Below, piece after piece: positions 10,188-31,895 of a stretch of 32,000 nucleotides of DNA (within the stretch, counting starts at the first letter, position 1; the number at the start of each line of letters is the position of its first letter). The stretch is from contig CAZIYE010000001.1 in the NCBI GenBank assembly GCA_964543385.1, forward strand, positions 480,001 to 512,000, read 5' to 3'. The notes under the pieces were generated by a model that ran no database searches, was not told the DNA's origin, and saw only the letters and a list, made by a program, of their open reading frames with translations. The DNA comes from an uncultured Candidatus Saccharibacteria bacterium (GTDB lineage Bacteria > Patescibacteriota > UBA1384 > XYA2-FULL-43-10 > 1-14-0-10-43-13). The position numbers were made by a program, and so were the translations under genes.

Positions 10188-13100
10188 CTAGAATCCGATA
10201 TGGGTCCAGGCAACTGTTTGAGGATTTTGCCATATGCCCATGCGGGTATCACTTTCACATCCGTTACCTTTTTTTGATCCACAAATACCACCGCATGAGA
10301 TTGAGTCGTTTCCTAATCTGGGCTGGCACATATTCACCGTTATCATCCCTGCTTGATCAAAATAATCTACATCTTCTTTTCGGCCTGTCATAATCTGGAT
10401 TGGATATATCGGCTCATTGTCAGTTGTATTATATTTCTCGTAATTTTGGATCCTCATCATATTTTCTATCAATTTTCTTGCCTTATTCTGAGAAGCCTCA
10501 ACCATTTTCTTTTTGAGTAGTTCGTTTATGTTGTTATTTTGCTTGATTTGTCCGCCCCATACTCCCATACCAGTTGTATCATTTATCTTTGGCTGAGGAG
10601 CTTCAATCTTTGGATAATATCCATCAGCAGTACAGTAATAGTAAATTTTTTGACCCAAAAGATATCCTGCCAAAGCTATAACTACTGCTGCTGTCCACCC
10701 CACCGGACCAAGACCAAGCAAAGGCGCGACCACGAGATTATAAACAGCCACAGTTATCAAAGGAGTCAGGGTGCCAGGGATCATTCCCAAGCTATCTTCT
10801 ACTCCCGCGATTTGCTTGTCTAAAAGCTTTTCTACTGCAATTGATACAATTTTGTATACCACTAATGTTTCCGCAGCAGTAAAAGCTTGTTTTGCTGCAT
10901 CTTTGGCTTCTGCTAAGTCAGAGATCTTATTTAATTCCATAAACTCTTTAGCGTTGCTCGACAGTTGAGCAATATCTTTCACTCTTGAAATCTCTTCATA
11001 TATCTTCCAAGACTTATAAAGATCATAACCAAGTTTAAATATTTCAAGAGACTGTCCAGCTTTAAGGCCCAGTGTTTTATCTGCCCAAGTAAAAAGCTTT
11101 GTCGTAATAACAGTAGTTAATACCCCCCCCACAGTTGGCAGAGACATAGTTGAACCATCAGCTACAATTGTATTATGTGTTGTGCTATCACCTTTAACAA
11201 TGTTATCTAGAGTTATTGATTTCAAGCCCCAGTCGCCGGTACCGACACCGACAAGAAGTCCTTTGGCCAAATCTCCACTTATTGGGAAGCCAAACCATTC
11301 CTCGGAATTATCTGAGAGGAAGTTGCTGAAGAAATCAAATCCATTACCACTTGCAAACGTTGTAAAGGCATCTTTATCTCCGGCCACAAAATCCTTAGCA
11401 AATTTTGCTACCTGGATCCATTCGTCGACATTTTTAATTGCCTCAAAATTTTTGCCTAGTAAATGGCCATTTGTAAGGCCTGTTTTAATATATCTGGCAA
11501 GGGCAGCTGCCTTTATCTCAGCATTACCCTGAAGCAGGTCTCTGGCCATGCCTGGGTAAGAGTTCTCGTCTAATTTCCAAAGAGCAATATCGAGCATCTT
11601 GAATTGGAGATTATCCAAAGAAGCTTTTCTTATTGATTTCTGTACCGTTGTTAGTAATTCTCCATTTTTGGGAGTAAAGTTTGCACCGCTTGGTTGATAA
11701 TAAGATTCTGGATTAGAAAGTCTGTCCAATCTGCCTTCTGGGTCTCCATTGTTTTTATTATATTCAGAAACACATTTATTATATTGGTCTCCACTCGCTT
11801 GGTTGGTCGATTTCTGGCAGGCCGCTGGAGCGGCTGCATTATTGCTCACAATGCTTGTATTTAACTCGTCGATCTTACTTTGCAAATTCTCCGGCGAATA
11901 ATTATATTGTTCATCAACTTGATTAGTTACTGATGTTGAAGTCGATGTTTCAGTATAATTTTTCCCCAGAGAATCGATCAAGGCATCACCGAAATTGCCG
12001 CTACCTGTTTTTGGGCAATTATCACCATTACATACCTTTCTTGTTTCCGGATTACTGTAAATACCATTAACATCAACCCAAGCCGCCCTCTGATATGCTT
12101 CGACATCAGGCGCCCCTATTATAGAAGTTTTTATGTCATCATAGGCTATGCGCATCTCTTGTGGAATTGCAGTCTTACACTCGTCGTCTCCATTTGCTGA
12201 GCAGTGACTTTTCCTTATATTGTCTATAGGAGCCATAACATAATTAACTCCTAGAGAAATCGCTGCAATTTGGAAATACTTCATATCCCCACTAACTAGA
12301 TTAGCGATATCTTCCAAAGGCATATCAACGCCGACTCTTATCTCTTTATTATTGTAATTTGCCTTAACGTTATATATAAAATCGTGAATTTTATCACTCA
12401 ATACTTCTTTACCCCATGCGACGATGTCCTCTTTAAACGATCCGTCAACATTTCCCGAAGGATTTTGGGAGATTGCGGCCTTGCAGATATTATATCGATC
12501 GTTGATCTCCTTGCTGAGGGTGGTTCTGGCCTGTTGGACTTCAGTGAGCGCAACCTTTAAATCTTCCTGCCATTTTTTATATTCGCTAGAGTTAATATAA
12601 TCATCCGTTTTTTGCCCATTCTTTGAAACAGGCTTCTGTTTTTCAAGTTCGGCAAGCTTGGCTTCTGCATTATGCAGACTAGTATCAAGCGGCGATACGG
12701 TAGGGTCCGAACTTGCTTCATTTAAACAGTCTTTTGTCTGTCCTGTCGGGCCAAAAGAAACATGAACAACGCGACTATACAATCCCGTAAAAGAAGCAGC
12801 TTTTGAAGAATCAAGCCCAAATTGGTAGTCTATTTTCTGCGCACCAATTTCCATCAAAATAGTTCCTGAGTTCATTGGATCAGCAATAATTCTTTGGAAG
12901 GTTCCCTCAGGCAAGTTTGCTCTTTCATCAAGCTGAAAAGTGAATATCTGATTTAAATGATCATATAACTTATCCCACTTCCCATACCATTCGTCTGTTG
13001 CCGAACCAGTTCGACAAACTTTTTGTCCGTCGGTTTCGATTATTTTCCCCTGGCACTTGAAAATATTATTTAAGTTCTTAACAAGAGTAAGAGCTGTCTC

Positions 13101-16100
13101 TGACTGATTTTGGTCTAAACCAAGGCTTTCTCCTATTTTGCTACCAACAAGTTTCAATCCTGTTTGTTCGCCAACTAGTTGATTGTATTTATCTGGAGTC
13201 ATACTATTCAAGCCAGCCAAGAGGTCATAAGTAGAGTTTGAGCTTATACCAAACTGTTTATCTAAATAATTCAACTGCTGATAAAACTCTATATTCCCAG
13301 AATTATTTTGTTGACTCTTGCCTGCAACAGCCAGTGCAGATTTCAGTCGATCTTTGATTTTTTGATCGATATTGTTAATTGCAGTAAGGGCCGGGCCATT
13401 TATAACCAACGATCCCCTTAAATGATTTTGAATTTGCCGTGCTTTGTATTCGGCGCCAGTATTTTTAATTTTCTTGGCATAGCTATCGCCAAAGATATCT
13501 ACCAGGGATTTCTCATCAAAAATTTCTTCACCATTATCATCAGAGAGGGGAATGTTGAAAGATAGAGCGATATTGATAGCGCGGGACCTATCAAAGGCTT
13601 CACCGAATGTTGCCCCAAAGAATGTTCCTCTTGGAAGATTCAATGATTGCTCAACTTTTGATTGTCCGAAGTTCGATACAAAATCACTAATTTTTTCGCC
13701 TTTTAGCGGGAAATAATCTAGGCCGATTAAGCTTCCAAGTATAGATCCGCCAACTTGATTTAGAGTACAGTTTCTTGATATTTGGTCTTTTGCATTAAAT
13801 ACCGATAGGACGGTCCCGGGCTTTAAATTTAGCTCCTGATCGATATAGTTAGTACTTATTCTGTATAACGATGTAAAATCACCGCCAAGGACATTGTAGA
13901 GGTCGTCGGGCCCAAATAATGATGGGTCAATGTTTAGGCCTGAAGCATCAAAAATTTTATAGTTAATTACTTTTTCTGCAACTGCTCTACCAACTAATAG
14001 TTTGTAATTGGGAACTGGTAAATTTGTGCTGTCTTTGATAAACAATTTACTTAGAATCTTTTTATCAATATTATTTTTATTGCCTATAGCATCGATAAGT
14101 TGTTGGGTTTTTTCTTTATTATTTCCAAATGCATATTGTACATTTTTATCAGTGATAAAAGACAACAGGTTATTTCTAATATCAGAGATTTGTGACTTAT
14201 CACTCGCACTGTCTGCTAATCTTTGGGCTAATTCCTCCAATATATTGCCATATCTTTGGTCTTTGTTAATCAGTGAATATCGCTGGGCTTCTTCGGGGCT
14301 TTTGAAACAATGACGACCCTTCTTGTCGTAATAACAGAAGGAGTTATTCTCTAGGCTGGTTTCATTTATCGAGAATCCATCCTGTTTAGTATAAGAAACA
14401 GGGCATTGATTGCTATCAGATGCGGTATCAGCATAAGGGTTTACAAATACATAGTCTGGGTTTAATACATCGTCGTTATATTGATCAAGCTCGCTAGGTA
14501 AGATCTTGCCGCTTACTAATTTTGTATAAATATCAAGAACATTCTTGCTTATCTTTAGATTGTTCTCGAGCAAATTTTGTTCATCGCTAGACAGATTTAC
14601 AGAGTAAAGATTCTTGTCCTTAGTAAATAGTGACTTCGTATCACCGTCTTCTAGGCCAAGAAGATTATCAATAGACAGGGCCTCTGAAAGTGCTTTTTGC
14701 CATGCCAAAACACCTCCAGATTTTAGTGCTTCGTAGTTTCCGCTACCAAGCCCTAATCGCATCATCAAGTCGCTTTCAGCAGATTTTAATGCATCGTTAA
14801 ATCCTCTATCCTTAATATTTTGAACGATACTATCAGTATTAAAACTGTTTGCATTTGTCTTGCTGCCAAATTGTTCAATTATTTTGTCTTGTTTTTGCTT
14901 CCAATTGTCTCTTGCTGAGGCAACCAATAAATCGTAATCAGGCCAGTTTTCAGCCTGCATCTGGCTCAAAACGTTTAATAATTTATTGCTACTATTAATA
15001 CCCGTTATATCGGTAGGTAATTCCCCCAGCGGCGATTTGGCTTTATTCAATTTACTTGCCAGGTAACTGTTTACTGCTTCATCAATCTTAGTTTTGTCTG
15101 CATACTTTAATAATTCTGAGGCATTTGTAGCAAAATCAGCCATTGTAGAGACCGAATTCTTTTCCTGAAAATAGAATGGTGGCATCGAAAAGACTTCCTC
15201 AATCTTAGCTTGGCCGATAGACTTGAAGAACGCGTCACTTCCCCCCATTCCTTTTTTCTCGAAATTCTCAACTAAATATAAGAGAGAGTTACTTGGTAAA
15301 CCAAGCTTTGATTCTGCCATATTGGCACCAAATGAGATAAAAAGATCAGTCGGCGATACATTACCTGCCAAGAACCCAAATATTAGAGAGGAGGCCTTAA
15401 ACGGCGAGATATTATTATTTCCTCCTCCGCTATCATTGCTAGTCAGATCCATACTATTTATTTGAGAAAGTTTAAGGGAGTCCGAAGTTGGTATCTCTCG
15501 GCCGGATATGATTTCAGAAGATATCCTAAGGAGTTCGTTGGCATTAAAGATAATAGAATTCAGTTCATCAATCTTGTTATTTGCCTCTGCCTTGGCGGTG
15601 GTGAAGTTCTTAATTGAATCTAGCTGGGTGACTATAGAGTCAATCTGGCTTGTTGCAGAACTCATTTTCTCCCACGTATTTTGTATTTTTATTGTATTTG
15701 CATCACTAGATTCAAAAACATTTTTGAGATTACTAATTAAATCATTAATTTCAGTATATGTATTCTCGAAACCTGAATCCTTGCTTGCAAAGATTTTCCA
15801 ATCACCCTTAATATCAGCCAATAATTTTTGTGCCTGATTCAATCTTGATGTATAAAATGCGATAGTACTGTTGCTAATTCTTAATTCTGGATTCGTGTTT
15901 AATAAATCTATTTTGGTTTTGTCTTCTTTGTTGATTAATTTGTTTGCAACACCTGTATATAAAATTTGTGAACCGATCCTCTTGAAGACGGGGCTATTAT
16001 TAGCTGTAGAACAACCAAAGATCCTTTGCAGGTCAAGTTTCTCGAGCCCAGCTAGCATGGACTTTTCTTCTGTCACAATAAAATCATCAGTTCGTGTTTC

Positions 16101-18608
16101 CACATTTTGGTCAGAGTATACTAGTGAATACTCAACTTTTTGTGTTATTGGAATAGCTGGTAGAGCGTTAGAAATCTTAGAACTGCCTTGAAAAATAATT
16201 TGTCCCTCTGGTGTAATTTCATAGTCTAGAGTTTTGTTTAGCTTTGGGGCACTACATTCGTTGCTTGATTTTTGAATGTTTCCACGAAGCCACTGTCGGA
16301 AAATAAATCTGCCAAATTCATCTGGATTAATATCTTGTGTTACGCCCCCTTCGATAACTCGGATTTTTTTATAACTCTGGTCTGAGCTTCCCTTTGGTGC
16401 TACGCTATCATCTGCTAGGAGCCGTGCCAGAGTGTAGATGCCGATAGTTGATAGGCTCTCATGATCACCACTTAGCGCTCCCTCCCAAGTGTCTCTAATA
16501 TCCGGTTGTTTCTCTGTTGGGCCTGGTAATTGATAAGCACCATTATTCATTGAAAAATATTTTAAACCATAGAGTGTGTCATCAAGTCTCTTCTTGCCTA
16601 CCATCGCAGCAAAATCTGCAGAATTGATTCTTTCTAGAATAAAATTATTTGCCGTGCCTGCACCAAGATTTAGGTCATTATCAATCAATCCAGGATTGTT
16701 TTTAATCAAAGTCGACCTCAATGAGCCGATTTTATCCGAGAGGTTGCCGAAGGTTACTGCTTCTTTCGGCCAAGAGTTGCCTGCTAGATTCAAATCTTTT
16801 TCGATAACTTTTGCGCCTACATAGTTAGCGAAAACATCATTTTTTGAAGTAACAAAGGCATCTAAATCACCAGCGTTCAGATTCATCTCATGTTCTAACT
16901 TTCTCTGGCCAATCTTGATGAGAGTTGATGGCAGGTCACTACCTGATAGCGAGCCAAAAGGTATTCCTAGCTTCTTCTCAATTGCTGATCGGCCGATAGT
17001 GTATTTTATTTTCTCAATGTCTGAAAGATTCTGACCAATAAATATTTCTCTTGGCAACCCTAAATAATCAGCAACATAAGTACTTCCTAGCTTCTTGAGG
17101 GTATCTTCTACATTAAATCCGGCAAAGTTCAGACTCTTCGATTCTAAGACATTACCTAACAGGGATTTTCCTAATATCTGAATTATATCTTCAAAATTAG
17201 CCTTGCTGAGATCTCCTTCATAAGAAGAGATGTCGCTATTCAAGTTGCCCAGCAAACCATTGACTGATTCGGAGGCAGCCGATTTTAGAAGACTCATCAT
17301 ATCAAATGGATCTCTCTCTCCGGATGCATTCCAGCCGTCGGTAGTTTGCCAAGCTAATTTAATTGGTTGTATCGGTTGTTTATATTTCTTTGTGCCTCCA
17401 GTGTTCTTTTTAACAACCTTCGTACACCTGATATCATCGATCTCTGATATATCTATAGCTTGCCCTTCAGCATGAGAGGACAGATTGCGTTCCTCTACAA
17501 AAGAGTCCTCCTTTTCGGTAAGGCTAGTTAGGTAGGCCTCATATTGAGCACCATTCTTATCTTCAATTTCAAGATCTGGGGTCGTTCCTTTTTGTTTGCC
17601 ACAGTCAGCGGCAGTCATTTCATCGCTACAACCTTTAGACACAGACTTTTGGCTATTAGCCAGAGTTTGTACCACAGAATCAGATTCTGTTGATTTATCC
17701 TGCCTTTGCAGAATGCGATTAACTCTTATTCTCCAGTGGCCAGCCCCACCCTGATTTTTTGGAGTAATTAGGTAGACCAAGGTTTTAAGAACCCTTACAT
17801 CAATATTCAGCGAGTCTATAGATTCTTTTAGTTTTTCTGCTAAATATGGCTTATCGTGGTTAACATAATTAATAATTCTTTCGCGCCCGATTCCTGTCAC
17901 ACAAACCAAAGTGTCTAAATCAACAGAAGGAACTTTTCCTTTTTTTAAATTATCTTCTTCATCTGCCCAAATATCTCTTATTTTATTTTCGCCAACATTC
18001 TTTCTTGCAGCTTCGGCAAGACGATTAAAAAGTTGCAGATTGTCGAATCTCTCAGTAGAGGTTAGGTTATCTCTTCCGATCTTCAAATATTTTAAATATT
18101 CAATTGGCGTCTTGAAATCTTTGTTAGATTGCAAATTTTTATCTACGATCTCTGTTTGATCCTTAGGCAAGTTTTTATATAGGGCATCAAAATCTTCATC
18201 AAAATTTGGGAGTATATTGGAAAGACAGGAAAGTGATTTCAAGGCCGCTAAATCACTTTGTTTCATAATTATTTTCTGTTCTGATGAATTTGTTAACAGA
18301 TCATCAAAAGTAATAAGGCTATCTTGATCGGAGAACTGAGCCATTGTTTCTAATAATTTCTTATATGCCAAAGAGTCGCTCAGTGTTTTTTTTACCTTAC
18401 ACTGCTGGTTATCTTTAGTTGGTATATAAGAATACTTTTTCTGATCAGCAACTTTTATTAGCAAAGGAATCTCTGGATCATAATCAATCTCTCCATCGTT
18501 GTCATCGGCTGCTTTTGCATTCAAGGCAAAAGCATATCCTGTGGATCCAAATGCGATTGATATTATCAATAAGTAAATAACAGTCTGTTTTAAAATATAT
18601 TTCAACAT
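10188..18608 (-). CDS. Giant secreted, membrane-anchored protein (about 2806 aa); last gene of the T4SS-like operon
   Basis: An uninterrupted 8.4-kb ORF. My preferred start is ATG 18608 (TAATG overlap with the upstream stop), giving the signal peptide MLKYILKQTVIYLLIISIAFGSTGYAFALNAKA/ADD. The ORF track's start is at 18641. A LAS-like SSHAEGQAID motif lies near 17450-17480. A degenerate L(G/N)LP-type motif is repeated many times. A hydrophobic hairpin (LITVAVYNLVVAPLLGLGPVGWTAAVVIALAGYLLG, about 10650-10790) precedes a Cys-containing C-terminal domain of about 150 aa. Confidence 0.85.
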   Translation of the reverse strand: MLKYILKQTVIYLLIISIAFGSTGYAFALNAKAADDNDGEIDYDPEIPLLIKVADQKKYSYIPTKDNQQCKVKKTLSDSLAYKKLLETMAQFSDQDSLITFDDLLTNSSEQKIIMKQSDLAALKSLSCLSNILPNFDEDFDALYKNLPKDQTEIVDKNLQSNKDFKTPIEYLKYLKIGRDNLTSTERFDNLQLFNRLAEAARKNVGENKIRDIWADEEDNLKKGKVPSVDLDTLVCVTGIGRERIINYVNHDKPYLAEKLKESIDSLNIDVRVLKTLVYLITPKNQGGAGHWRIRVNRILQRQDKSTESDSVVQTLANSQKSVSKGCSDEMTAADCGKQKGTTPDLEIEDKNGAQYEAYLTSLTEKEDSFVEERNLSSHAEGQAIDISEIDDIRCTKVVKKNTGGTKKYKQPIQPIKLAWQTTDGWNASGERDPFDMMSLLKSAASESVNGLLGNLNSDISSYEGDLSKANFEDIIQILGKSLLGNVLESKSLNFAGFNVEDTLKKLGSTYVADYLGLPREIFIGQNLSDIEKIKYTIGRSAIEKKLGIPFGSLSGSDLPSTLIKIGQRKLEHEMNLNAGDLDAFVTSKNDVFANYVGAKVIEKDLNLAGNSWPKEAVTFGNLSDKIGSLRSTLIKNNPGLIDNDLNLGAGTANNFILERINSADFAAMVGKKRLDDTLYGLKYFSMNNGAYQLPGPTEKQPDIRDTWEGALSGDHESLSTIGIYTLARLLADDSVAPKGSSDQSYKKIRVIEGGVTQDINPDEFGRFIFRQWLRGNIQKSSNECSAPKLNKTLDYEITPEGQIIFQGSSKISNALPAIPITQKVEYSLVYSDQNVETRTDDFIVTEEKSMLAGLEKLDLQRIFGCSTANNSPVFKRIGSQILYTGVANKLINKEDKTKIDLLNTNPELRISNSTIAFYTSRLNQAQKLLADIKGDWKIFASKDSGFENTYTEINDLISNLKNVFESSDANTIKIQNTWEKMSSATSQIDSIVTQLDSIKNFTTAKAEANNKIDELNSIIFNANELLRISSEIISGREIPTSDSLKLSQINSMDLTSNDSGGGNNNISPFKASSLIFGFLAGNVSPTDLFISFGANMAESKLGLPSNSLLYLVENFEKKGMGGSDAFFKSIGQAKIEEVFSMPPFYFQEKNSVSTMADFATNASELLKYADKTKIDEAVNSYLASKLNKAKSPLGELPTDITGINSSNKLLNVLSQMQAENWPDYDLLVASARDNWKQKQDKIIEQFGSKTNANSFNTDSIVQNIKDRGFNDALKSAESDLMMRLGLGSGNYEALKSGGVLAWQKALSEALSIDNLLGLEDGDTKSLFTKDKNLYSVNLSSDEQNLLENNLKISKNVLDIYTKLVSGKILPSELDQYNDDVLNPDYVFVNPYADTASDSNQCPVSYTKQDGFSINETSLENNSFCYYDKKGRHCFKSPEEAQRYSLINKDQRYGNILEELAQRLADSASDKSQISDIRNNLLSFITDKNVQYAFGNNKEKTQQLIDAIGNKNNIDKKILSKLFIKDSTNLPVPNYKLLVGRAVAEKVINYKIFDASGLNIDPSLFGPDDLYNVLGGDFTSLYRISTNYIDQELNLKPGTVLSVFNAKDQISRNCTLNQVGGSILGSLIGLDYFPLKGEKISDFVSNFGQSKVEQSLNLPRGTFFGATFGEAFDRSRAINIALSFNIPLSDDNGEEIFDEKSLVDIFGDSYAKKIKNTGAEYKARQIQNHLRGSLVINGPALTAINNIDQKIKDRLKSALAVAGKSQQNNSGNIEFYQQLNYLDKQFGISSNSTYDLLAGLNSMTPDKYNQLVGEQTGLKLVGSKIGESLGLDQNQSETALTLVKNLNNIFKCQGKIIETDGQKVCRTGSATDEWYGKWDKLYDHLNQIFTFQLDERANLPEGTFQRIIADPMNSGTILMEIGAQKIDYQFGLDSSKAASFTGLYSRVVHVSFGPTGQTKDCLNEASSDPTVSPLDTSLHNAEAKLAELEKQKPVSKNGQKTDDYINSSEYKKWQEDLKVALTEVQQARTTLSKEINDRYNICKAAISQNPSGNVDGSFKEDIVAWGKEVLSDKIHDFIYNVKANYNNKEIRVGVDMPLEDIANLVSGDMKYFQIAAISLGVNYVMAPIDNIRKSHCSANGDDECKTAIPQEMRIAYDDIKTSIIGAPDVEAYQRAAWVDVNGIYSNPETRKVCNGDNCPKTGSGNFGDALIDSLGKNYTETSTSTSVTNQVDEQYNYSPENLQSKIDELNTSIVSNNAAAPAACQKSTNQASGDQYNKCVSEYNKNNGDPEGRLDRLSNPESYYQPSGANFTPKNGELLTTVQKSIRKASLDNLQFKMLDIALWKLDENSYPGMARDLLQGNAEIKAAALARYIKTGLTNGHLLGKNFEAIKNVDEWIQVAKFAKDFVAGDKDAFTTFASGNGFDFFSNFLSDNSEEWFGFPISGDLAKGLLVGVGTGDWGLKSITLDNIVKGDSTTHNTIVADGSTMSLPTVGGVLTTVITTKLFTWADKTLGLKAGQSLEIFKLGYDLYKSWKIYEEISRVKDIAQLSSNAKEFMELNKISDLAEAKDAAKQAFTAAETLVVYKIVSIAVEKLLDKQIAGVEDSLGMIPGTLTPLITVAVYNLVVAPLLGLGPVGWTAAVVIALAGYLLGQKIYYYCTADGYYPKIEAPQPKINDTTGMGVWGGQIKQNNNINELLKKKMVEASQNKARKLIENMMRIQNYEKYNTTDNEPIYPIQIMTGRKEDVDYFDQAGMITVNMCQPRLGNDSISCGGICGSKKGNGCESDTRMGIWQNPQTVAWTHIGF

Positions 18609-21728: not shown

Positions 21729-23006
21729 TTAGTATTGCTCAATTCTTAAGTGAAAGTGGGCCTTGTGCTTATCCCATGCTACCATGCGCCCTGGCTTTTT
21801 ATTTTCTATAGCATAGCTATTTACTGCCGCTATAACCTCTGAGTCTTCGTAACCAATCCTTGTGGCGCCACAATTGATCAGAAGTTTACCCAGGTCTATC
21901 ATCATTTGTCTATTTGCAGCATCATAATTATTATTAGCTATAGCTGGTCTCTCCCTAACATTCATCATGTGGCCAGGTAGTAATATATCAGCGTCGATTC
22001 CTTTGGCGTGGGAGGCATGACCGTCAGCCTTTTTGCATTGCCCGCTCAATTCACCGATAACAAGTTTTGGTCTGCCGGCTTCAGCCCACTGTTTGCTAAC
22101 AGATACAAGAATATTAATTAATGACGGCTTGCCCCAATGTTCTTCTTTATCGCCGCTCTTTGTGTAATACTTTTCAAGTGCTGGAACTTCTACCCAACCG
22201 CAGGATGAGCCCTTATAACCAAGGTTAAGGTTTGTTTTGCAAAGAAGAGAATTTGGAATGAGTTTAGTAGTTACCGATGCAAGTGAGAGACAGCCATTAT
22301 TAAGTCCTTGAAAATTTTTCCATGTGCGCAATGCATATCCTGGTCCATTTGGGTTTGGGTAAGGTGCTCCCCAATTCCACCCAGGGTTTTTCGTATTCTC
22401 TGGTGCCCTATCTAGAGGAAAACCCATTTTTTTCCACTCCCTTAATCTGGCGGGGCCTCTGTTATAAAGCATTCCCGCAGCCTTCACAGTTTTTTCGTCA
22501 GCCCCGTCTGCTTTCAAACCATTATCTTCGAGATGGTATTTTATATATGCAGCTGCGGCTAATGCAGAATCAGCGAAATCGTCTGGATTACCTGTGGGCT
22601 TATCTGAATATTTTTTATAAATATTACCGGCCCACTTACCGTCAAAATCCTCAATCTGAAAAGGTCCCTTTGCATTTCCGCCTCGTGCCCAAATTCCATT
22701 AGCACCAGCAGAAGCCTTAATAGAATCACCGTGCTCTGCCATGAATATAGCTCCAAGCAAGGCAGGTTGTATCCCAACCTTGTTAGCAGCTTCCTCAATG
22801 GCCGATTGATACCCGCTAGGAGCTGCATCCCAGGACGTACAGCGTATATTGCCAAATAAATTAACAGGGTTTACGGTTTCCTTTATTCTTCCGCTCCACA
22901 GAGATGTTCCAGCTGCAGTAAAAGCGAGTGAAAGTACTGCGGCCAAACCTAAAACAGCCAGTATTATACCGGCCTGAGTAAAACCCTTGCTGTTTCTGTG
23001 AAACAT
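21729..23006 (-). CDS. Bifunctional cell-wall hydrolase: SLT-type lytic transglycosylase + LAS (MepA-like) metallo-endopeptidase (VirB1/CwlT-like role)
   Basis: N-terminal signal anchor. SLT-like motifs are AIFMAEHG (catalytic Glu candidate), GPFQI and AAAAYIKYHL...LYNRGP. C-terminal LAS motifs are GHASHAKGIDADILL (H-x(3-6)-D) and HKAHFHLRI (H-x-H), as in the MepA family. The start is ATG 23006 or GTG 23009. Confidence 0.7.
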   Translation of the reverse strand: MFHRNSKGFTQAGIILAVLGLAAVLSLAFTAAGTSLWSGRIKETVNPVNLFGNIRCTSWDAAPSGYQSAIEEAANKVGIQPALLGAIFMAEHGDSIKASAGANGIWARGGNAKGPFQIEDFDGKWAGNIYKKYSDKPTGNPDDFADSALAAAAYIKYHLEDNGLKADGADEKTVKAAGMLYNRGPARLREWKKMGFPLDRAPENTKNPGWNWGAPYPNPNGPGYALRTWKNFQGLNNGCLSLASVTTKLIPNSLLCKTNLNLGYKGSSCGWVEVPALEKYYTKSGDKEEHWGKPSLINILVSVSKQWAEAGRPKLVIGELSGQCKKADGHASHAKGIDADILLPGHMMNVRERPAIANNNYDAANRQMMIDLGKLLINCGATRIGYEDSEVIAAVNSYAIENKKPGRMVAWDKHKAHFHLRIEQY

Positions 23007-24864: not shown

Positions 24865-25825
24865 TATTTTGTATGGTTGTATTAATTGGTTGAGCAGGGG
24901 CTGATTGTATAGGCATATTATTTGTATCAACAGCCGATGGTATCTGTTGGATTTGCTGTATCAATTGGTCAGTTGTATTTGATTGTATAGTATTGTTGCC
25001 AACGACTGGTTGTGTTCCTTGCGGGGTTTGTGCTGTCTTATCGGCTTCTTGGCGTCGTCGTGAGGCGATTTGCCTTTGTTGTTCCTCTACCATGTCAGCG
25101 TTATCAATTGATTCTTGAGAATCAACTTGTTCTACCGGTTGTTGTGTATTCTCAGAAATCTCATTCCTCGCAATTATTACTGGCGCTGACAATGTCTCCG
25201 CATCGCTAACCCTTTCCTTCGCCGACTCATCAGGATTATATATCTGGTAGAAGAGCTCTATTATTTGTTCAGTAGAAAGCTGGAAGCAATGTAAGCCCAT
25301 GCTAGCCAAGCCCGAGGCAACAATACTCGCTCTTTGCCCTAGTTGGTCAGTAGATGATTTGAACTCCGTATCAGTAACTTTGATATGGTCAAACGTTTGT
25401 GTCTTGGCAAACAGACTATCAAAGACATTTAATTTTTTTATATTAATTGGATCGTAGGGGACGACTAGATAAAAGGTCTTTTTCATAATATTGGCTATTG
25501 AGATCAGTTTTGACACAAAATCAACATAATCACCAATTTGCATTTTTATAAGTTCATTGATGCTTTTTTCAGAGGCCCTTTTTATTTTTTCAAGATAGGG
25601 ATTCAAGTCTAATCGTCTCGATCTAATAACAATTTCAACAGGGAAGTGTAGAGAATTAAGAAAACTCTGATATTGAAATATAAGTGAGTTTTGTTCTTGT
25701 TCACTTTTCAATGCAAAATTTACGGCAGATACTTCTAAAATCATGCGGTAACTACCATCTTTCAATATCATTATACCGTCTTTGATACCGGCTATAGGAA
25801 CAGATTGTTGGGTCGATAATGCCAT
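24854..25825 (-). CDS. VirB4 N-terminal-domain-like protein lacking an NTPase domain, with a Q/T/N-rich disordered tail (323 aa)
   Basis: SVPIAGIKDGIMILKDGSYRMILEVSAVNFALKSEQEQNSLIFQYQSFLNSLHFPVEIVIRSRRLDLNPYL resembles the N-terminus of Firmicutes-type VirB4 proteins as I remember them. No Walker motifs are present. The C-terminal roughly 110 aa are Q/T/N-rich and low in complexity. Confidence 0.45.
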   Translation of the reverse strand: MALSTQQSVPIAGIKDGIMILKDGSYRMILEVSAVNFALKSEQEQNSLIFQYQSFLNSLHFPVEIVIRSRRLDLNPYLEKIKRASEKSINELIKMQIGDYVDFVSKLISIANIMKKTFYLVVPYDPINIKKLNVFDSLFAKTQTFDHIKVTDTEFKSSTDQLGQRASIVASGLASMGLHCFQLSTEQIIELFYQIYNPDESAKERVSDAETLSAPVIIARNEISENTQQPVEQVDSQESIDNADMVEEQQRQIASRRRQEADKTAQTPQGTQPVVGNNTIQSNTTDQLIQQIQQIPSAVDTNNMPIQSAPAQPINTTIQNNGQ

Positions 25826-25842: not shown

Positions 25843-26265
25843 TTATTTTCTAATTAGCGGGCTGTTGTCACCCGAGTCGGATTTTTTAGCCAGGATGTCT
25901 ATTTGTGATTGACTAATGTTCTTATGTTGGATTTTTTGTTCGTTACTTTTTTCAACATGATAAATTTCTATATTTAAATTACTACCTAGGCTTTGATGCC
26001 AGAACCTTCTCTTTGGTGTAGCGGCATATTCTATGGCAGAAATAAAGAAATCTAAAAATGGTCTCTCATTTACTTTGACGAAATCAAGACAAACAACAAA
26101 AAGTGCTATAGGGGCAATTAAAAAGTATGACGCCGGACGAGGCAAGCTCATATAGATGGCATAGCATGTGCCAAATCCAACTACCGCATAAACAAACTGG
26201 ATCATTGTTAATGGTCCTAAAATGCGATCCTGCATATCTATATTTTGTGGAACTTTAAATTGCAA
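25843..26265 (-). CDS. PrgI/VirB3-like small membrane protein (140 aa)
   Basis: TTG start preceded by a strong GGAGGGG at 5-nt spacing. (M)QFKVPQNIDMQDRILGPLTMIQFVYAVVGFG... followed by two hydrophobic helices matches the PrgI-family pattern. Its position upstream of VirB4 is typical. Confidence 0.6.
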   Translation of the reverse strand: MQFKVPQNIDMQDRILGPLTMIQFVYAVVGFGTCYAIYMSLPRPASYFLIAPIALFVVCLDFVKVNERPFLDFFISAIEYAATPKRRFWHQSLGSNLNIEIYHVEKSNEQKIQHKNISQSQIDILAKKSDSGDNSPLIRK

Positions 26266-26331
26266 TTAACCCCTCCAAAGATATTCTTCAATTCAATTTT
26301 ACCATTAAGATGAAAGACAATCAATCAAAGG

Positions 26332-27150
26332 TTATTCGGGCAATGGGATAATATAATCAGTCTTGTTTTGCATTGCTAAGTCTTCTTCTTCAAACCAATA
26401 AGCCGCAATTTGATCTATTAACTGTCCTTTTGACGGGTTATTTTTCGGATTTATTTTTCTGCACTTCATAACAGCATTACCAGCCGTAACCATTCTCTCA
26501 ACGATTGTCATAAGCATACCGGCAGTCTTCGTTTCGAGCATATCTTTTGGGTGTCCTGCCTTGGTTAGTGCCTCTATTGCCCTTCTCTTGGCATCGTTTG
26601 GTACTAGAATTAAGACTTTAAGATCAGCATGAGTATAGACAAGCTCACTGACCTCTGCTGCTACTTCTTCATATATCATATTCACATATCGACTACAGTA
26701 TGGCAATATTTCCAGAAATTCCTCCCAATACTCAGTCACCCTCATAATCTTTTTTGACTTCTCGAGCAGAATGATCCTTCCAATCGATTTGACGGTTTCT
26801 TCAAAATTATTTTCATCAACCTTAAAATCGATGTTATTTTTCTCACAAGTTTCGTTTAGTTTACCAATCACAATTTTCTTATCAGCTTTCTTAAGGACAT
26901 CAATATTCATTTTTGATGCAAGGTCGATGAATTTTATTCGCTGGTCTCCGATAGTAATATTTAAAACATCACAGTAAGATCCCTCGGCCAGAGAAGCAGA
27001 CATCATAATGGGGAACGATTCCTTTCTTATAAGATCTATATATTCGGCCTTTTTATTGCGCAGAAAAACCAGACTCTCACTAAAAGAACTGGTGTTAACG
27101 GCTGACAGGATAATATCATGTAATATTTTTTTTGCTTCCTCTTCTTGCAT
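26332..27150 (-). CDS. Hypothetical soluble protein (272 aa), no recognisable family
   Basis: A clean ORF with AAGGT upstream of the ATG. It has no TM segments or signal peptide and is embedded between the VirB6-like and PrgI-like genes. Confidence 0.6.
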   Translation of the reverse strand: MQEEEAKKILHDIILSAVNTSSFSESLVFLRNKKAEYIDLIRKESFPIMMSASLAEGSYCDVLNITIGDQRIKFIDLASKMNIDVLKKADKKIVIGKLNETCEKNNIDFKVDENNFEETVKSIGRIILLEKSKKIMRVTEYWEEFLEILPYCSRYVNMIYEEVAAEVSELVYTHADLKVLILVPNDAKRRAIEALTKAGHPKDMLETKTAGMLMTIVERMVTAGNAVMKCRKINPKNNPSKGQLIDQIAAYWFEEEDLAMQNKTDYIIPLPE

Positions 27151-27167: not shown

Positions 27168-29792
27168 CTAAGTTGGCGCACCTGGCAATAATTGTGTTTC
27201 TACGGCATCGTTTAAATGGCGACGATCGGAATTCTTTGGATAAGTTTTATAATAATCCACCATTAGTGTTCTCAGAGTTTCAGTGTCACCATTTGTGACC
27301 GCTGTCTGAAATGCATCCCAAAGTGCTGCAGCGGTCTTCGAGTCTGTACGGTGATCTTTCTTTAGTTCTTCAACAAGCCATTTTTGACCGATAGATAAGA
27401 CATCGGATTCCGGCGCTTGGCTAAGAATTGCCTCGGTGGTCTTGGCGCTATCTGCTTCACTATTCAAGTGGTACCTCATCCCCTCGGCATTAGCATAAAT
27501 TCTACTCTCCTTATTTGAATCTTCAATTACCTCACCATTTCTTAGTCTTGATGTTAGCTCTTCGGTTAAGCCATCTTTTAGATCGGAGCCAAAGAAAATA
27601 CTAACCGTCTCTTCAGCACTTCGCTTGGCATAGTCATTTGCAGCTCGACTATTCGTTTTGGTCATAGCAATACCTTTGTTTCTGGTATATACAACTCTTT
27701 CCATTAGTCTGATATCATCGACTCTGCCATCTTTGTCTAAATGGACCATATCTCTGAGGTGTGAATCGATATAGCCTTTATCGGGATCATCTAATTGTTT
27801 ATTTAATTTATCAATCATCCTTTGCCTATTTGTTGTTGCCTTCTGTACTGCATGCGAAAATCTTTCGCTATCGAGAACTAATTGTTCGCCTTCTTGGAGA
27901 ATATTCTGTGATGCAAGGATATTGGAGACTCTGCGACTGGTTGACATTACATCGAGGACGGCTTTCCTTCGTTTCTCGGTCGCTGTAGCTTCCTCTTTTG
28001 TCATTTGATCTGTCTTTGTAATCTCTGCAAGGGCTCTGGCATGTTGTCTTTTCTCATCTGCCGTCAACTGGTCGAGCGCTTTCTTTCTTGACTGCAGGTA
28101 TTTGATGAGCTCTCTAACTTCTGCCGAGGAAGAATCTGATAATTTCTTGATCTCGTCTAGCATCATAACAGCCAATTGCCTTTCTTGAAGAGCGCTTCTT
28201 TCAAGAGCTGGTTTTACTGAAGCGTCGTTGAGCATTTTTTCCATACCGGCCTTTGACGATTCTTCGGCAGATCTTGCTCTGCGAAACAATTGCTGGAAAA
28301 GTTCTGCTTCTTTTGCGTCAGTACCAAGAAGCGCCAGATTTGATGCTTTTCTTTTGGCAAACTCTTCTTTGCTTTCATGATCCTTTTGACTTCCGCCGCC
28401 ACTTAGCCATAAATATTGACCATTTTGTCTTAAGGCGTTATCCATACTTGTAGCAGCCCCCATCCGACCCGCGGCCATACCAGAGCCGGCTCTCCATTTC
28501 TCGTATTGCTTCCACATCGGATTTTCAGGGTCAGTGATACCTAGTTTTTGCAGTGCTTCAAGTCCATAGGCTTCATATTCGCCGACTTCACCATTACGGT
28601 TTTTTATCCACTCAATTTCCATCGTGCGGCTAAGGCCCTTATCGAGGTTATACCTCCCCTGTATACCCTCGGTAATTCCCTTAGATAATCGCGATACATG
28701 TGCTTCGTCTGCTGCTAATTTGTCCCCACCACTTCCAATCCAATTTTTACCAAGCCATCTGACCCAACCAAACTTGCCCTCTCTTTGCATATTGAGTCCA
28801 AACTTCTTATATCTTTCCCAACCAAGACTGGCTGTGGCTTTAACTCGACGACCCCAATAGTCTTTGGCATTGTTTGCAAGGAATTTAGATCCGGTGTATG
28901 TCCAAAATTTATCCATAACTACGCCACCCATCTTGAATGGTATGGCAATGGCGGCATATAAACAAAGGCCAGCCAATAAGGCACTAACTATAGGTGACGG
29001 CAGCCATGAGGTTGCTACGATAGGATTCTCAACGAATATAGTCCCAAGCCATAGGAAAAAGATTGCTGGCACTGGCATGAATGTCCATTTTAAAAATTCA
29101 CTCCACCATTTACTAAAATATGGTTTTGTTTGAGGAAGAGCCAGTGTCATGAAAGCGACGGAAGAAACTATTGTCAAAAGATATATCATCCATGTTCGAA
29201 CAATAAATATAAAACTGAGTACGAGGGTAAGAGCACTTCCAACAAGCATAAATAATATTTTTACAACAACATCAAAGAACATCGAGTAAGTGAACTTTGC
29301 GAAATCTATAGATTCGCCCATCAATTTATCTCTAAAAGTATATTTATAAGTATCTCCCATGCCAGACGCTTGGCCTAGTAGGTTTGGGTCGGTAAATAAG
29401 GTGATAGACATATTGGCAAAGTCTATTACCAATTTACATATAAGATAACTAAATTGGGCAGCAATGATTGCAAGTAAAAGGGTAGGCAATATCTTTTTAA
29501 AACTGTAAGTGTCAATTTTTAAGTGCAGTATCTCAGCGAAAGCTACTACTACTACTACTAGGATGATAGGTATATTAATAATATTTAGAAATCCAGTATG
29601 TAGATTCTTAATATCATTATTACTTCTTAGTGTTTGTTGTATGGTCTCTGCATGGGCTTCTGAAGGCATCAAAATAATCACCATTAGAATTGTCAATAGA
29701 ATAGAGAAGGTGATGTATCTATTTAATTTTAATTTATTGTTAATTAGGTGCATATTTAAATTCACATTTTGTTTCTTTAGCACCAATAGCAT
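27168..29792 (-). CDS. VirB6/TrbL-like polytopic membrane protein with a C-terminal helical extension of about 560 aa (861-874 aa)
   Basis: Signal-peptide-like N-terminus (...ILMPSEAHA/ETIQ). An alternative ATG at 29753 gives a more conventional leader. About six TM helices lie in the first 300 aa or so. A long, charged, helix-rich tail follows (EKRQHARALAEITKTDQMTKEEATATEKRRK...). The VirB6 call rests on topology and context only. Confidence 0.5.
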   Translation of the reverse strand: MLLVLKKQNVNLNMHLINNKLKLNRYITFSILLTILMVIILMPSEAHAETIQQTLRSNNDIKNLHTGFLNIINIPIILVVVVVAFAEILHLKIDTYSFKKILPTLLLAIIAAQFSYLICKLVIDFANMSITLFTDPNLLGQASGMGDTYKYTFRDKLMGESIDFAKFTYSMFFDVVVKILFMLVGSALTLVLSFIFIVRTWMIYLLTIVSSVAFMTLALPQTKPYFSKWWSEFLKWTFMPVPAIFFLWLGTIFVENPIVATSWLPSPIVSALLAGLCLYAAIAIPFKMGGVVMDKFWTYTGSKFLANNAKDYWGRRVKATASLGWERYKKFGLNMQREGKFGWVRWLGKNWIGSGGDKLAADEAHVSRLSKGITEGIQGRYNLDKGLSRTMEIEWIKNRNGEVGEYEAYGLEALQKLGITDPENPMWKQYEKWRAGSGMAAGRMGAATSMDNALRQNGQYLWLSGGGSQKDHESKEEFAKRKASNLALLGTDAKEAELFQQLFRRARSAEESSKAGMEKMLNDASVKPALERSALQERQLAVMMLDEIKKLSDSSSAEVRELIKYLQSRKKALDQLTADEKRQHARALAEITKTDQMTKEEATATEKRRKAVLDVMSTSRRVSNILASQNILQEGEQLVLDSERFSHAVQKATTNRQRMIDKLNKQLDDPDKGYIDSHLRDMVHLDKDGRVDDIRLMERVVYTRNKGIAMTKTNSRAANDYAKRSAEETVSIFFGSDLKDGLTEELTSRLRNGEVIEDSNKESRIYANAEGMRYHLNSEADSAKTTEAILSQAPESDVLSIGQKWLVEELKKDHRTDSKTAAALWDAFQTAVTNGDTETLRTLMVDYYKTYPKNSDRRHLNDAVETQLLPGAPT

Positions 29793-31818
29793 TATTAAAA
29801 AGACAGAAAGAGAACTTCCATATTGAAAATGCTAGATCATGGATAAACTTTAAAATATTACATAGTGCCCAAGCAAAAGGGTCCAGCCCTTTGCCAGTAA
29901 TAGATATTTTTGGACATGTTGAATCAAACCATGGGGATGATTTCAGTATGCCCAAAAATCTTAAAACAGCAATACCGAGTAAACCTGCCCCTACAAGGAC
30001 TTTTTTGATTGCTCCAGGTATCATCCCTATCCATTTTCCGACTATTTCGGCACCCTGAAATAGTCCATACAATGCTTTTCCTATCAACCCCTTGAAGCCT
30101 GGCTTTGCCATCAGATCAACAATTTTAACTCCGAGTGCTGTCCATAAAAGTTTCAATTTGTTTCCAGCTCCCGCAAAAAAGGTAATTTTACTTAGCAATC
30201 TTCCTATTGGACCAAGTGCTAATTTGCCAATCCAGCCGACTCCTTGCAATAATTTTCCTGCGGGTATTAATGAAATAGCCATCCATATCGATGCCTTTAC
30301 GATGTTTCCCGCATTCTTACTCTTTATTGCGTTATAAAGATCAATGCCAGAGATTACAATACCTGCCACATACAAGACCGCAACTGCTGCGGCCAATGGG
30401 GCGATGGCTTGTGCCCTTTGCGGTCTTAGCCCACCTATTACTGCCCCTTCTTCATTTATTCTTAGCTCGTCCATGCTATTAATTTTATCTTCAGGATCTT
30501 TGGATAGTTCATTTGCTACTTCATTTCCCATTTCGGGCCAAAAAGGAAGCTCCTGTAACTCCTCTTTGGTTTGTGGGTCATATGATGCAAGTTTCACTTG
30601 GTATTTATCTATTGCTTTAAGAGCTGACATCATCTCTGGTGCCATCAGTATCTCTTCTGAATATTTTGGCATCTCAAACCCTCTTTGATTGTCAATTTGT
30701 TCATCCATGTAGCTTATCAAGTCTGTCATCATGGTGAGATTAAAAAAAGCTTTTGCCGCTTCTTCTTTATTTTCGATCTTCTGACTATCAAGGTATCGTT
30801 TATATGCGACAACGCTATCAGAAAGTTCGGTAGCATCAGCATCATTAAACTTATTTGGGTATGAAATCTTATTGCTTTGATCAAGAGTAAAATTACCGTT
30901 GGCGGCTGCCTTGGCTAAATGATCCTGAATTTGTTTCCTAGTTTTACAATCATTTTTGCTGTTGCATTCAAGTTTCTTTAGCCAAAAGTCATTAAGACTA
31001 CCATTCTCATTGAGATAATTGTTCCAGAAACCATCCTTTTCAATCCCGTTCCATGTCTTCTCAACCACCTCAATTTCTCTGGTTATTGGCTCTTTGTACA
31101 AAACGAACTTATCATCTTTCTTTTGATAAACCTCTACAATCACTTTGTGTTTGCTTCCAGATTTATCTGCCACAGATTGAGCCAGAAAAGTGTCCCATGT
31201 ATAAATAAAGTTAAGTTGTTTCTTATCCTTATAATTGATAAATGAGTCCTTAAAACTAGTTCGTCCGTTAGATTCTTGTATTGAAATATTAATTTTATCT
31301 ATTGTTTCTTCCGAGCTATCTTTAATCCAGAAAGATACAGATATTGGCGTGGTTGCTCCAAGAGCTACTTTGTCAGCGGTTTGGAGCAAAATTGCAACAT
31401 CCGGCATCTCTGAATCGTCGGGCACATTCGGAACTACCACTTCAGCGTTACCTATATCGCTGTTCTCCGATGAATCATCTGTGGTTGTGGGGGAATCTGA
31501 TGAATCTGTTTCAGTGTTGTCAGTTTCATCGGCGTCCTCATTTACACTATCTTCCGTATCTAGTAGATCTTCTTCGGGAGTTAGCATTAGTTCTTCTTCT
31601 GCATTGGCTTTATTGATGAGATTTGATAGAGAAGCCTTTTTACTGCTGTTTTTAAAATTTTCAACCCCATCTGCCAAATATTTTAGGCGGTTGTTGACTC
31701 TCGCAATTTCCGCATTGAGATTATTTTGCTCTATTTCCTTGACCTGAATCAAGGGTTGAAACAGCAAAAAAACTAAGCTAAAAATTAAAGCCCAAGATAT
31801 TATGCTTCTGAGTTTCAT
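29740..31818 (-). CDS. Hypothetical secreted/membrane protein (692 aa); first gene of the operon
   Basis: GAGAGGG lies upstream of the ATG. The signal peptide is MKLRSIISWALIFSLVFLLF. An acidic D/E/S/T-rich linker follows (EEDLLDTEDSVNEDADETDNTETDSSDS...), then a central globular region, then a Gly/Lys-rich C-terminal region with several hydrophobic helices (AIAPLAAAVAVLYVAGIVISGI..., VLVGAGLLGIAVLRFLGIL). No family recognised. Confidence 0.6.
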   Translation of the reverse strand: MKLRSIISWALIFSLVFLLFQPLIQVKEIEQNNLNAEIARVNNRLKYLADGVENFKNSSKKASLSNLINKANAEEELMLTPEEDLLDTEDSVNEDADETDNTETDSSDSPTTTDDSSENSDIGNAEVVVPNVPDDSEMPDVAILLQTADKVALGATTPISVSFWIKDSSEETIDKINISIQESNGRTSFKDSFINYKDKKQLNFIYTWDTFLAQSVADKSGSKHKVIVEVYQKKDDKFVLYKEPITREIEVVEKTWNGIEKDGFWNNYLNENGSLNDFWLKKLECNSKNDCKTRKQIQDHLAKAAANGNFTLDQSNKISYPNKFNDADATELSDSVVAYKRYLDSQKIENKEEAAKAFFNLTMMTDLISYMDEQIDNQRGFEMPKYSEEILMAPEMMSALKAIDKYQVKLASYDPQTKEELQELPFWPEMGNEVANELSKDPEDKINSMDELRINEEGAVIGGLRPQRAQAIAPLAAAVAVLYVAGIVISGIDLYNAIKSKNAGNIVKASIWMAISLIPAGKLLQGVGWIGKLALGPIGRLLSKITFFAGAGNKLKLLWTALGVKIVDLMAKPGFKGLIGKALYGLFQGAEIVGKWIGMIPGAIKKVLVGAGLLGIAVLRFLGILKSSPWFDSTCPKISITGKGLDPFAWALCNILKFIHDLAFSIWKFSFCLFNNAIGAKETKCEFKYAPN

Positions 31819-31865
31819 TTCCCTCTCTTTGTTATAGTTGGCCCCACCAATTACTGTCTATATAA

Positions 31866-31895
31866 ATTATAAACGATTGAGGGGTAAAAAGTAAA
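31866..31895 (-). promoter_or_regulatory. Putative sigma70-type promoter of the 10-gene operon
   Basis: On the minus strand, TTTACT (31895-31890), an 18-nt spacer, then TATAAT (31871-31866). It lies about 45 nt upstream of the ATG at 31818. Confidence 0.4.

Follow-up and report, generated by a model that had tools for sequence, protein, structure and literature searches.

A chromosomal, origin-proximal type IV secretion gene cluster lacking conjugation genes, from a Berkelbacteria-like lineage of Patescibacteria

We analysed a stretch of 32,000 nucleotides, hereafter the window, from an uncultured Candidatus Saccharibacteria bacterium (contig CAZIYE010000001.1, positions 480,001 to 512,000). 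On its minus strand, between positions 10188 and 31818, are ten consecutive open reading frames (ORFs) that form an operon of ~21.6 kb. At a probability of roughly 85%, the region encodes a chromosomal, origin-proximal, non-conjugative type IV secretion system (T4SS) of the sort characteristic of Patescibacteria, or the candidate phyla radiation (CPR). Traits of the Patescibacteria clade are present: TrsD and PrgI genes beside virB4, a pilin array, no relaxase in ~46 kb, and dnaA close by. The cluster is not a conjugation machine, since no coupling protein, relaxase, origin-of-transfer (oriT) type context or island boundary lies nearby. The original prediction, made from the letters of the window, had likewise argued against an ordinary conjugative element and for a host-interaction machine of an episymbiont. 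Context, flanks and conservation all support this. Note that the same conclusion has been published for Patescibacteria (PMC10633639, PMC12102498, PMC12857230) and, hence, the novelty of the cluster had been overestimated. The window holds no new kind of system, but the example it gives, of a Berkelbacteria-like lineage, is clean and complete.

The operon genes, g1 to g10 in order of transcription, and a candidate promoter are as follows, with the basis of each assignment in brackets.

29740..31818, minus strand: g1, a 692-amino acid (aa) secreted or membrane orphan (sequence features, transmembrane prediction)
27168..29753, minus strand: g2, treated as an extended VirB6-like polytopic membrane protein (positional orthologues, transmembrane prediction)
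26332..27150, minus strand: g3, a predicted 272-aa soluble all-alpha orphan (AlphaFold2 model)
25843..26265, minus strand: g4, a PrgI/VirB3-family protein with a hairpin of two transmembrane helices (Pfam PrgI)
24854..25825, minus strand: g5, a TrsD-like protein equivalent to the N-terminal domain of VirB4, on a gene of its own and with a tail rich in Q/N/T (NCBIfam)
23011..24864, minus strand: g6, a VirB4 ATPase of the MPF-FATA/CD1110 type (NCBIfam, Pfam, Walker motifs)
21729..23006, minus strand: g7, a membrane-anchored VirB1-like wall enzyme with SLT-like and LAS (M74-type) parts (Pfam, transmembrane prediction)
20426..21688, minus strand: g8, with a transmembrane anchor at the N terminus, then a PEGA-like domain, then a PD40-type beta-propeller (Pfam, NCBIfam)
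18608..20326, minus strand: g9, a bitopic protein with a C-terminal M23/LytM-like domain (Pfam, transmembrane prediction)
10188..18608, minus strand: g10, a 2,806-aa giant envelope protein (homologues, transmembrane prediction)
31866..31895, minus strand: candidate operon promoter, TTTACT-18-TATAAT (top minus-strand sigma-70-like match, in the 125-nt gap upstream of g1)

The nine junctions, from g1 to g10, measure -14, +17, +66, +17, -11, +4, +40, +99 and -1 nt, where negative values are overlaps. These spacings, and the arrangement of ten genes on one strand, had been described before and were reproduced exactly from the ORFs and start codons. The start codons are those implied by the earlier description and agree with independent gene calls on public contigs that encode identical proteins. 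Those calls give protein lengths, for g1 to g10, of 692, 838/871, 272, 130/140, 323, 617, 425, 420, 568/572 and 2806 aa. The operon had also been placed behind a single plausible promoter. The best sigma-70-like match is indeed upstream of g1, and a GAGAGGG Shine-Dalgarno-like motif precedes the g1 ATG. However, sigma-70-like sites in the region are at chance level (67, compared with 59.7 +/- 7.9 in shuffled sequence) and further promoter-like sites are found inside the operon, for example at 26324..26296 in the g3-g4 gap. Hence, a single operon promoter is plausible only. No excess of terminators was found in the region.

Profile searches with Pfam and NCBIfam support the PrgI and VirB4 assignments made originally. 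The g6 product passes the curated cut-off of the NCBIfam conju_CD1110 model (1e-110, 371 bits; cut-off 325), matches P-loop_TraG (6.8e-29) and, in translation, retains intact Walker A (GSGKS) and Walker B (MIVDEAW) motifs. The g4 product scores above the cut-off for Pfam PrgI (2.2e-10, 41.4 bits; cut-off 27) and has two predicted transmembrane helices. Judged from its sequence, g5 is the known TrsD-type, split-off N-terminal domain of VirB4, as its earlier description as 'VirB4 N-domain-like' implied. This is because its matches to VirB4 models are confined to their N-terminal part, and because it also matches TrsD (VirB4_plasma, 9.2e-11, model positions 104-282; CD1110, 1.3e-6, model positions 2-92; TrsD, 3.2e-6). 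Furthermore, g5 and g6 jointly cover the CD1110 model (positions 2-92 and 181-735, respectively), and the TrsD-like and VirB4 parts form one ORF in two relatives (locus L035, 9113-11734, 873 aa; locus L045, 7971-10658, 895 aa), which is direct evidence of the split. The precomputed Pfam annotation of g5 is TraC-like PF26593. The C-terminal ~110 aa of this protein (window 24854-25180) make up a long Q/N/T/P-rich low-complexity tail, and the gene overlaps the start of virB4 by 11 nt.

Two further parts of the core had been named in the original prediction, a VirB6-like protein and wall hydrolases, and each call holds in part. For g2, seven transmembrane helices are predicted within the first 275 aa, followed by a hydrophilic C-terminal domain of 590 aa. 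No direct family match was obtained for g2 itself in Pfam or NCBIfam. However, among the 14 positional orthologues that could be aligned, five match Pfam TrbL/VirB6, TrbL_3 or TrbL_4, the best at 8.6e-8 (TrbL/VirB6), and the N-terminal domain of g2 is conserved in 30 loci. We therefore treat g2 as an extended VirB6-like protein, with support that is transitive, via orthologues. The wall enzyme g7 matches Peptidase_M74 (4e-11, 43.4 bits) and falls just below the cut-off for SLT (5.7e-4, 19.9 bits; cut-off 21.3). The H-x6-D and HxH motifs of its LAS metallopeptidase part, read from the translation, are kept. In contrast, the M23 domain of g9 lacks two canonical histidines. The g9 protein has a transmembrane helix at aa 274-292 and passes the Peptidase_M23 cut-off (1.8e-8, 34.9 bits; cut-off 28.7). 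By our consensus reading of motif placement, the domain (window 18608-19045) has KADAVD and QLHLE in place of HxxxD and HxH. The HxxxD histidine and the first HxH histidine are thus missing, as they are in the nearest orthologues (L005, L006), and a phmmer search with the domain found no match in PDB. Hence, g9 may be a non-catalytic LytM factor, perhaps not an active hydrolase.

The original prediction recognised only an inner-membrane core. While the core is confirmed, five VirB2-like pilin genes, located ~8 kb from the operon on the opposite side of oriC, had been overlooked. The features on that side of the window are as follows.

248..2115, plus strand: five tandem VirB2-like T4SS pilin genes, encoding 136, 120, 112, 108 and 99 aa (PF18895 T4SS_pilin)
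2118..3764, minus strand: PilB/GspE-type secretion ATPase (T2SSE 3e-121; PilB 8.5e-147; VirB11 only 4e-11)
5992..10175, plus strand: dnaA, DnaA-box cluster, dnaN, recF and a DciA-like gene, the block on which the operon converges

All five pilins exceed the PF18895 cut-off (31.3-40.6 bits; cut-off 26.6) and are predicted to have a signal sequence and two transmembrane helices. For four of the five, the best NCBIfam match is the Mbov_0395 pilin-like family, known from integrative and conjugative elements (ICEs) of Mycoplasma, at 1e-8 to 3e-4 and below the model cut-off. A member of the same family, above the cut-off, occurs in a cluster of the same gene order in Bacillota (Pontibacillus). These matches suggest that monoderm systems of the MPF-FATA type also have VirB2-like pilins. 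The pilus may thus have been inherited with the monoderm T4SS, not borrowed from diderm systems. Note that the origin of the pilins was left as an open question in PMC12102498 (Quinonero-Coronel et al. 2025); the monoderm pilin relatives bear on it. The gene for the PilB/GspE-type ATPase, a protein with an MshEN domain, abuts the pilin array, with no further type IV pilus genes to be seen in the vicinity. Equivalent ATPase genes adjoin pilin arrays in four other loci (L032, L034, L036, L087) and, in one (L085), directly follow the giant gene. Instead of driving a type IV pilus, this ATPase could partner the T4SS in the manner of VirB11.

From the left, the window carries the pilins, the PilB/GspE-type ATPase, tRNA-Ser, yidC, rnpA, dnaA, dnaN, recF and the DciA-like gene. 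The tRNA-Ser gene (3865-3954) was the sole Rfam match. Just 12 nt separate the stop of the DciA-like gene from that of the giant gene (10175-10188), and the operon ends 2.8 kb from dnaA and about 2.5 kb from the DnaA-box cluster. There are 24 DnaA-box-like sites, where 10.2 +/- 2.8 are expected. Seven are within 7430-7728, the AT-rich dnaA-dnaN spacer, which is the probable oriC. Because this cluster sits between them, the T4SS operon and the pilin array probably bracket the origin, with the operon transcribed towards it. If oriC is at 7430-7728, transcription of the operon would be head-on to replication. The same origin-ward orientation is found in Southlakia epibionticum and in five of the loci compared (L025, L035, L045, L086, L087).

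Family searches confirm the reported lack of conjugation genes in the window and extend it to the flanks. Across ~46 kb, comprising the window and the readable flanks, no relaxase, VirD4/TcpA coupling protein, VirB8/9/10 or VirB11 family was found, and neither were a phage-type integrase or island boundaries. Inspection of 10 kb upstream of g1, and of 3.9 kb past the left edge of the window, found no relaxase, VirD4 and integrase with direct repeats. The operon has housekeeping genes on both sides. The upstream 10 kb encodes BacA, PAP2, a Mur ligase, FemAB, TsaD and a XerD/XerC-type recombinase. Past the left edge are genes for a ComF-type protein, Hsp20, a nucleotidyltransferase and a solute-binding protein. 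The upstream 10 kb also has two genes of the 23S_rRNA_IVP family (L001, 453-812 and 7383-7763), one of which adjoins the XerD-like recombinase gene. Proteins of this family were first found encoded in intervening sequences of 23S rRNA.

A genome scan with VirB4 identified at least 570 confirmed relatives. Our locus comparisons rest on the best 80 of these, with 54-94% identity, which are nearly all labelled as CPR/Patescibacteria metagenome-assembled genomes. The best plasmid-borne relatives of g6 are from Bacillota or Actinomycetota, with 30-38% identity. Together, these data are consistent with g6 belonging to the Patescibacteria VirB4 clade. Berkelbacteria labels are frequent among VirB4 matches of 60-73% identity, and among homologues of the giant protein, and the closest named relatives of the source lineage carry Berkelbacteria labels. 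Gene order is kept in CPR genomes across this whole range of VirB4 identity. In nearly all of the 80 loci, PrgI is directly upstream of TrsD-VirB4, with a VirB6-like gene a few kb further upstream. The conserved order is VirB6-like, X, PrgI, TrsD, VirB4, hydrolase, PD40, X and giant, then DciA/recF/dnaN/dnaA in reverse; the full downstream order of hydrolase, PD40, LytM-like and giant is found in the closer clade. Compared with the nearest relative (L014), identity is 94% for VirB4, 84% for PrgI, 75% for TrsD, 69% for the VirB6-like protein, 61% for g3 and 59% for g1.

The operon ends with the giant protein g10. It has an N-terminal signal or anchor, a conserved N-proximal domain (aa 263-449) and two transmembrane helices (aa 2609-2648), beyond which is a strongly conserved, Cys-containing C-terminal domain that ends THIGF. 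Helical 'LxLPxGS' motifs are dispersed through the protein, with about ten copies of an 'IGxxxIExxLxLPxGS'-like motif, and none of these traits corresponds to a family described so far. No credible Pfam match was found with the whole protein, or with nine overlapping segments of it, and NCBIfam gave none. Similarly, searching PDB sequences with a profile yielded nothing beyond noise from coiled coils or designed helices. There are 62 full-length homologues, of 2,300-3,160 aa, all annotated 'hypothetical'. When 1.84 billion representatives were searched with a profile of the N-proximal domain, 185 clusters (at 50% identity) were detected. The proteins are almost all 1,300-3,300 aa long and carry the domain at an equivalent relative position. 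Ten distant members of the family yielded no credible Pfam domain, and just one sub-threshold RIFIN match.

Where the giant occurs, its context is constant. Giant-family ORFs are present in 21 of the 80 genome loci, always on the same strand as virB4 and 1.3-6.8 kb downstream, and nowhere else. Of the 52 loci with at least 6 kb of sequence downstream of virB4, 20 have such an ORF there, in the orientation of virB4. Five further distant or truncated members, looked up singly (P0062, P0059, P0113, P0114, P0120), have the same context, and in each of the 27 loci inspected the giant gene comes last in the run of genes downstream of virB4. More distant loci, including those of Doudnabacteria, Falkowbacteria and Peribacteria, lack it. 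Hence, as every giant-bearing locus examined has the same context, the association between giant and T4SS operon is strict within the clade where VirB4 is at least about 57% identical to g6.

The N-proximal domain of g10 contains an invariant SxHxxGxAxD motif (aa ~377-386), which is a LAS-peptidase signature. However, there is no conserved downstream histidine in this domain; the position reads W-Q. Support for a LAS-peptidase identity goes no further than sub-threshold matches to the LAS clan (Peptidase_M15_4, 0.17; M15_3, 0.11; Extensin-like_C, 0.078), and hhalign comparison with the LAS domain of g7 gave P=0.39. As far as we searched, no description of the giant family exists in the literature; to the same extent, the accessory module would be an undescribed part of the system. 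That g10 is a previously undescribed class of T4SS component is a bolder proposal, suggested by its sequence and position, which we consider doubtful. The giant might be a host-facing part of the apparatus, such as a wall-spanning stalk, or a module that breaches or binds the envelope, built around a divergent LAS-like domain. If so, this would explain how a T4SS of monoderm type reaches into another bacterium.

The g8 protein has PD40 repeats (1.3e-4) and a sub-threshold, nearly full-length match to PEGA (0.0049, 17.2 bits; cut-off 20.8; model positions 10-70 of 71). Proteins of this type are encoded downstream of VirB4 in about 27 loci. It had been called a TolB-like propeller. The PD40 repeat type is shared, but the TolB equivalog model is matched over only ~100 residues and far below its cut-off (7.4e-10, 38.3 bits; cut-off 343), and we rejected TolB as its identity. 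The g1 protein has an N-terminal signal or anchor, an acidic low-complexity stretch and a hydrophobic, Cys-containing C-terminal region. Neither g1 nor g3 matches Pfam or NCBIfam. Since they have just 3 (g1, at >=60% identity) and 6 (g3) homologue clusters among 5.8 billion proteins searched, both appear to be fast-evolving, lineage-specific genes. The last 49 aa of g1 align with the gene in the same position of related clusters (hhalign P=1.1e-4, probability 57%), while hhalign detected no similarity between g3 and its positional analogues. As had been proposed for the orphans, the structure of g3 was predicted. The AlphaFold2 model, from six sequences, has 14 helices, a mean predicted local distance difference test score (pLDDT) of 87.2 and a predicted template modelling score of 0.76. 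The model is all-alpha, not NTF2-like, and Foldseek comparison with PDB gave no match (best E=1, template modelling score <=0.19).

In Southlakia epibionticum, genes SEML1_0006-0019 are essential for epibiotic growth (PMC10633639; Wang et al. 2023). The pilins are among the essential genes, and no coupling protein or relaxase is recognisable. The supplementary transposon-sequencing table of that study classes all genes but one of SEML1_0004-0019 as essential. According to its supplementary tables, proteins encoded beside dnaA-dnaN-recF are a PEGA protein, lysozyme/peptidase proteins, VirB4, TrsD-like, PrgI and VirB6-like proteins and six pilins; the peptidase proteins include one of 1,113 aa, of M15B/Hedgehog-DD-peptidase type. 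A survey of 2,474 Patescibacteria virB4 loci placed them in a monophyletic clade nested in MPF-FATA, where TrsD, PrgI, VirB6 and VirB2 arrays are frequent, relaxases are rare and dnaA is nearby (PMC12102498). A 2025 review describes the Patescibacteria systems as the newest members of the T4SS superfamily, and reports theirs as the first T4SS essential for growth of its owner (PMC12857230). None of these three papers mentions a giant protein, PD40 or Berkelbacteria. The Patescibacteria T4SS is a leading candidate for how ultra-small parasites tap their hosts. The giant, PEGA-PD40 and degenerate LytM proteins are candidate lineage-specific outer components, open to testing.

By inference from canonical T4SSs, VirB4 and TrsD would dock on PrgI and VirB6 to form a membrane translocon, and would drive polymerisation of pilins into a tube. 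By the same reasoning, g7 would open the peptidoglycan. Strict synteny, and only this, suggests that g8, g9 and g10 are clade-specific outer parts of the apparatus; their probable tasks would be to hold it fast in the wall of the parasite and to make contact with, or break through, the envelope of the host. We consider a contact-dependent conduit to the host cell the most likely job of the system. A 2026 preprint on a cultivated relative reports tubular structures, possibly T4SS pili, that reach the host, as well as uptake of host RNA (10.64898/2026.06.21.733656). For the cargo, our preferred guess, at somewhat short of even odds, is that macromolecules of the host, for instance nucleic acids, are imported; effector export ranks behind it, and adhesion or other tasks would take the remainder. 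Several points weigh against our interpretation. The VirB6 assignment of g2 is transitive only, and the roles of g1, g3, g8, g9 and g10 are read from position alone. No VirB8-like (NTF2-fold) subunit was found among the ten operon proteins with Pfam and NCBIfam, although VirB8 is seldom detectable in CPR (PMC12102498). The AlphaFold2 model of g10 aa 235-715, from 27 sequences, has a pLDDT of 57.7, and of <50 for the conserved domain. Finally, VirD4-like genes are found far from virB4 in many CPR genomes (PMC12102498), and our search covered ~46 kb.

Different explanations for the cluster can be weighed against a Patescibacteria-type T4SS. The operon could be a decayed ICE that has lost its relaxase, coupling protein and integrase, or has them just outside the window. 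The core is, after all, homologous to Gram-positive conjugation genes (CD1110-family VirB4, PrgI, TrsD), a tyrosine recombinase is encoded 2.6 kb upstream and there is the tRNA-Ser gene noted above. However, that recombinase is of the XerD/XerC kind (1.9e-78), unlike an ICE integrase, and its neighbours are housekeeping genes, while yidC, rnpA, dnaA, dnaN and recF stand between the tRNA and the operon. No direct repeats of at least 14 nt occur between the operon flanks, and there is no compositional break (G+C content of 0.388 in the operon, compared with 0.352 and 0.379 in the flanks). Furthermore, the ORFs and Walker motifs are intact and the same chromosomal position is occupied in very divergent genomes, which points to vertical inheritance under selection. 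We consider a decayed ICE to be largely refuted, and rejected it as highly improbable. A quite different proposal is that the operon encodes two machines: a T4SS (g2 and g4-g7) and a separate envelope module (g8-g10), for wall growth or division or as a surface adhesin, which just happens to share the site near the origin. The g8-g10 proteins have no homologues in canonical T4SSs, and the degenerate M23 domain of g9 resembles LytM factors, like EnvC and NlpD, that regulate division amidases. The giant is also missing from distant CPR classes that retain the T4SS core, and giant surface proteins, presumed adhesins, are known from CPR genomes (PMC8080830). Conversely, in 27 of 27 contexts the giant gene shares the strand of virB4 and follows it at 1.3-6.8 kb, and it never occurs elsewhere. 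Junctions are tight, including the 1-nt overlap of g9 and g10, and the S. epibionticum equivalents, SEML1_0004-0007, share essentiality calls with the T4SS core. Two machines are thus improbable, if less so than a decayed ICE.

The final alternative is a functional sub-case of the Patescibacteria-type T4SS that we favour, namely a system dedicated to nucleic acid uptake, like Helicobacter ComB or archaeal Ced. The cluster has no relaxase or coupling protein, and g6 weakly matches CedB (6.3e-14, 51 bits) and CedD (1.9e-5), which are archaeal DNA-import ATPases. The T4SS has been proposed as an uptake route because Patescibacteria do not synthesise nucleotides and S. epibionticum can do without comEC (PMC11665869). 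The host RNA uptake described in the preprint above fits the same idea. Even so, the 51-bit CedB score is far under the 371 bits for CD1110, and no ComB- or Ced-specific subunit was found. A dedicated uptake system is possible, with the odds leaning against it.

Comparison with known systems places the cluster more precisely. Helicobacter ComB and archaeal Ced resemble it in being VirB4-based, relaxase-independent and possibly importing, and g6 has weak similarity to CedB and CedD. They differ in that ComB- or Ced-specific components are missing here and g6 resembles CD1110-type VirB4 far more closely. Conjugative T4SSs of the MPF-FATA class (pCF10 Prg/Pcf, pGO1 Trs and CTn2/CD1110-type ICEs) share more. 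Common to both are a VirB4 above the CD1110 cut-off, PrgI, a TrsD-like N-domain, a polytopic VirB6-type protein and a bifunctional wall hydrolase; that is, the core crossing the inner membrane and wall. However, the cluster here has no coupling protein, relaxase, oriT context, PrgB-type adhesin or VirB8-like PrgL. It does have VirB2-like pilins, and a fixed chromosomal locus in place of a mobile element.

The closest plasmid-borne VirB4, with 37.7% identity, is on a megaplasmid of Pontibacillus sp. ALD_SL1 (NZ_CP062975, 351801-361354; L088). Gene order in that cluster is pilin-like (Mbov_0395), a 779-aa protein of VirB6 size, TraL/VirB3-like, TrsD-like, VirB4 and a 1,050-aa M23 metalloendopeptidase. 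The replicon, of 898 kb, is typed as non-mobilizable, no relaxase is annotated in a 25.8-kb stretch and flagellar genes adjoin. Unlike the cluster described here, that of Pontibacillus is from a free-living member of the Bacillota, has one pilin gene, lacks the giant and is not near a chromosomal origin.

The T4SS of S. epibionticum ML1, and others of the Patescibacteria VirB4 clade, are the nearest match. There are differences from ML1. Here, the pilin array is across oriC, beside a PilB-like ATPase; there is one VirB6-like gene, not two, and no NTF2/VirB8-like protein was found among the operon products. A single protein combines PEGA with a PD40 propeller, M23 is present in degenerate form, and g1 and g3 have no sequence-detectable counterparts. 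The operon ends with a 2,806-aa unannotated giant, where ML1 has a 1,113-aa M15B-type protein. Nevertheless, both clusters are chromosomal, beside dnaA-dnaN-recF, and converge on recF. Both have the order VirB6-like, PrgI, TrsD-like, VirB4, wall hydrolases and PEGA-type protein, together with a divergent array of VirB2-like pilins, in a cluster free of relaxase and coupling protein genes.

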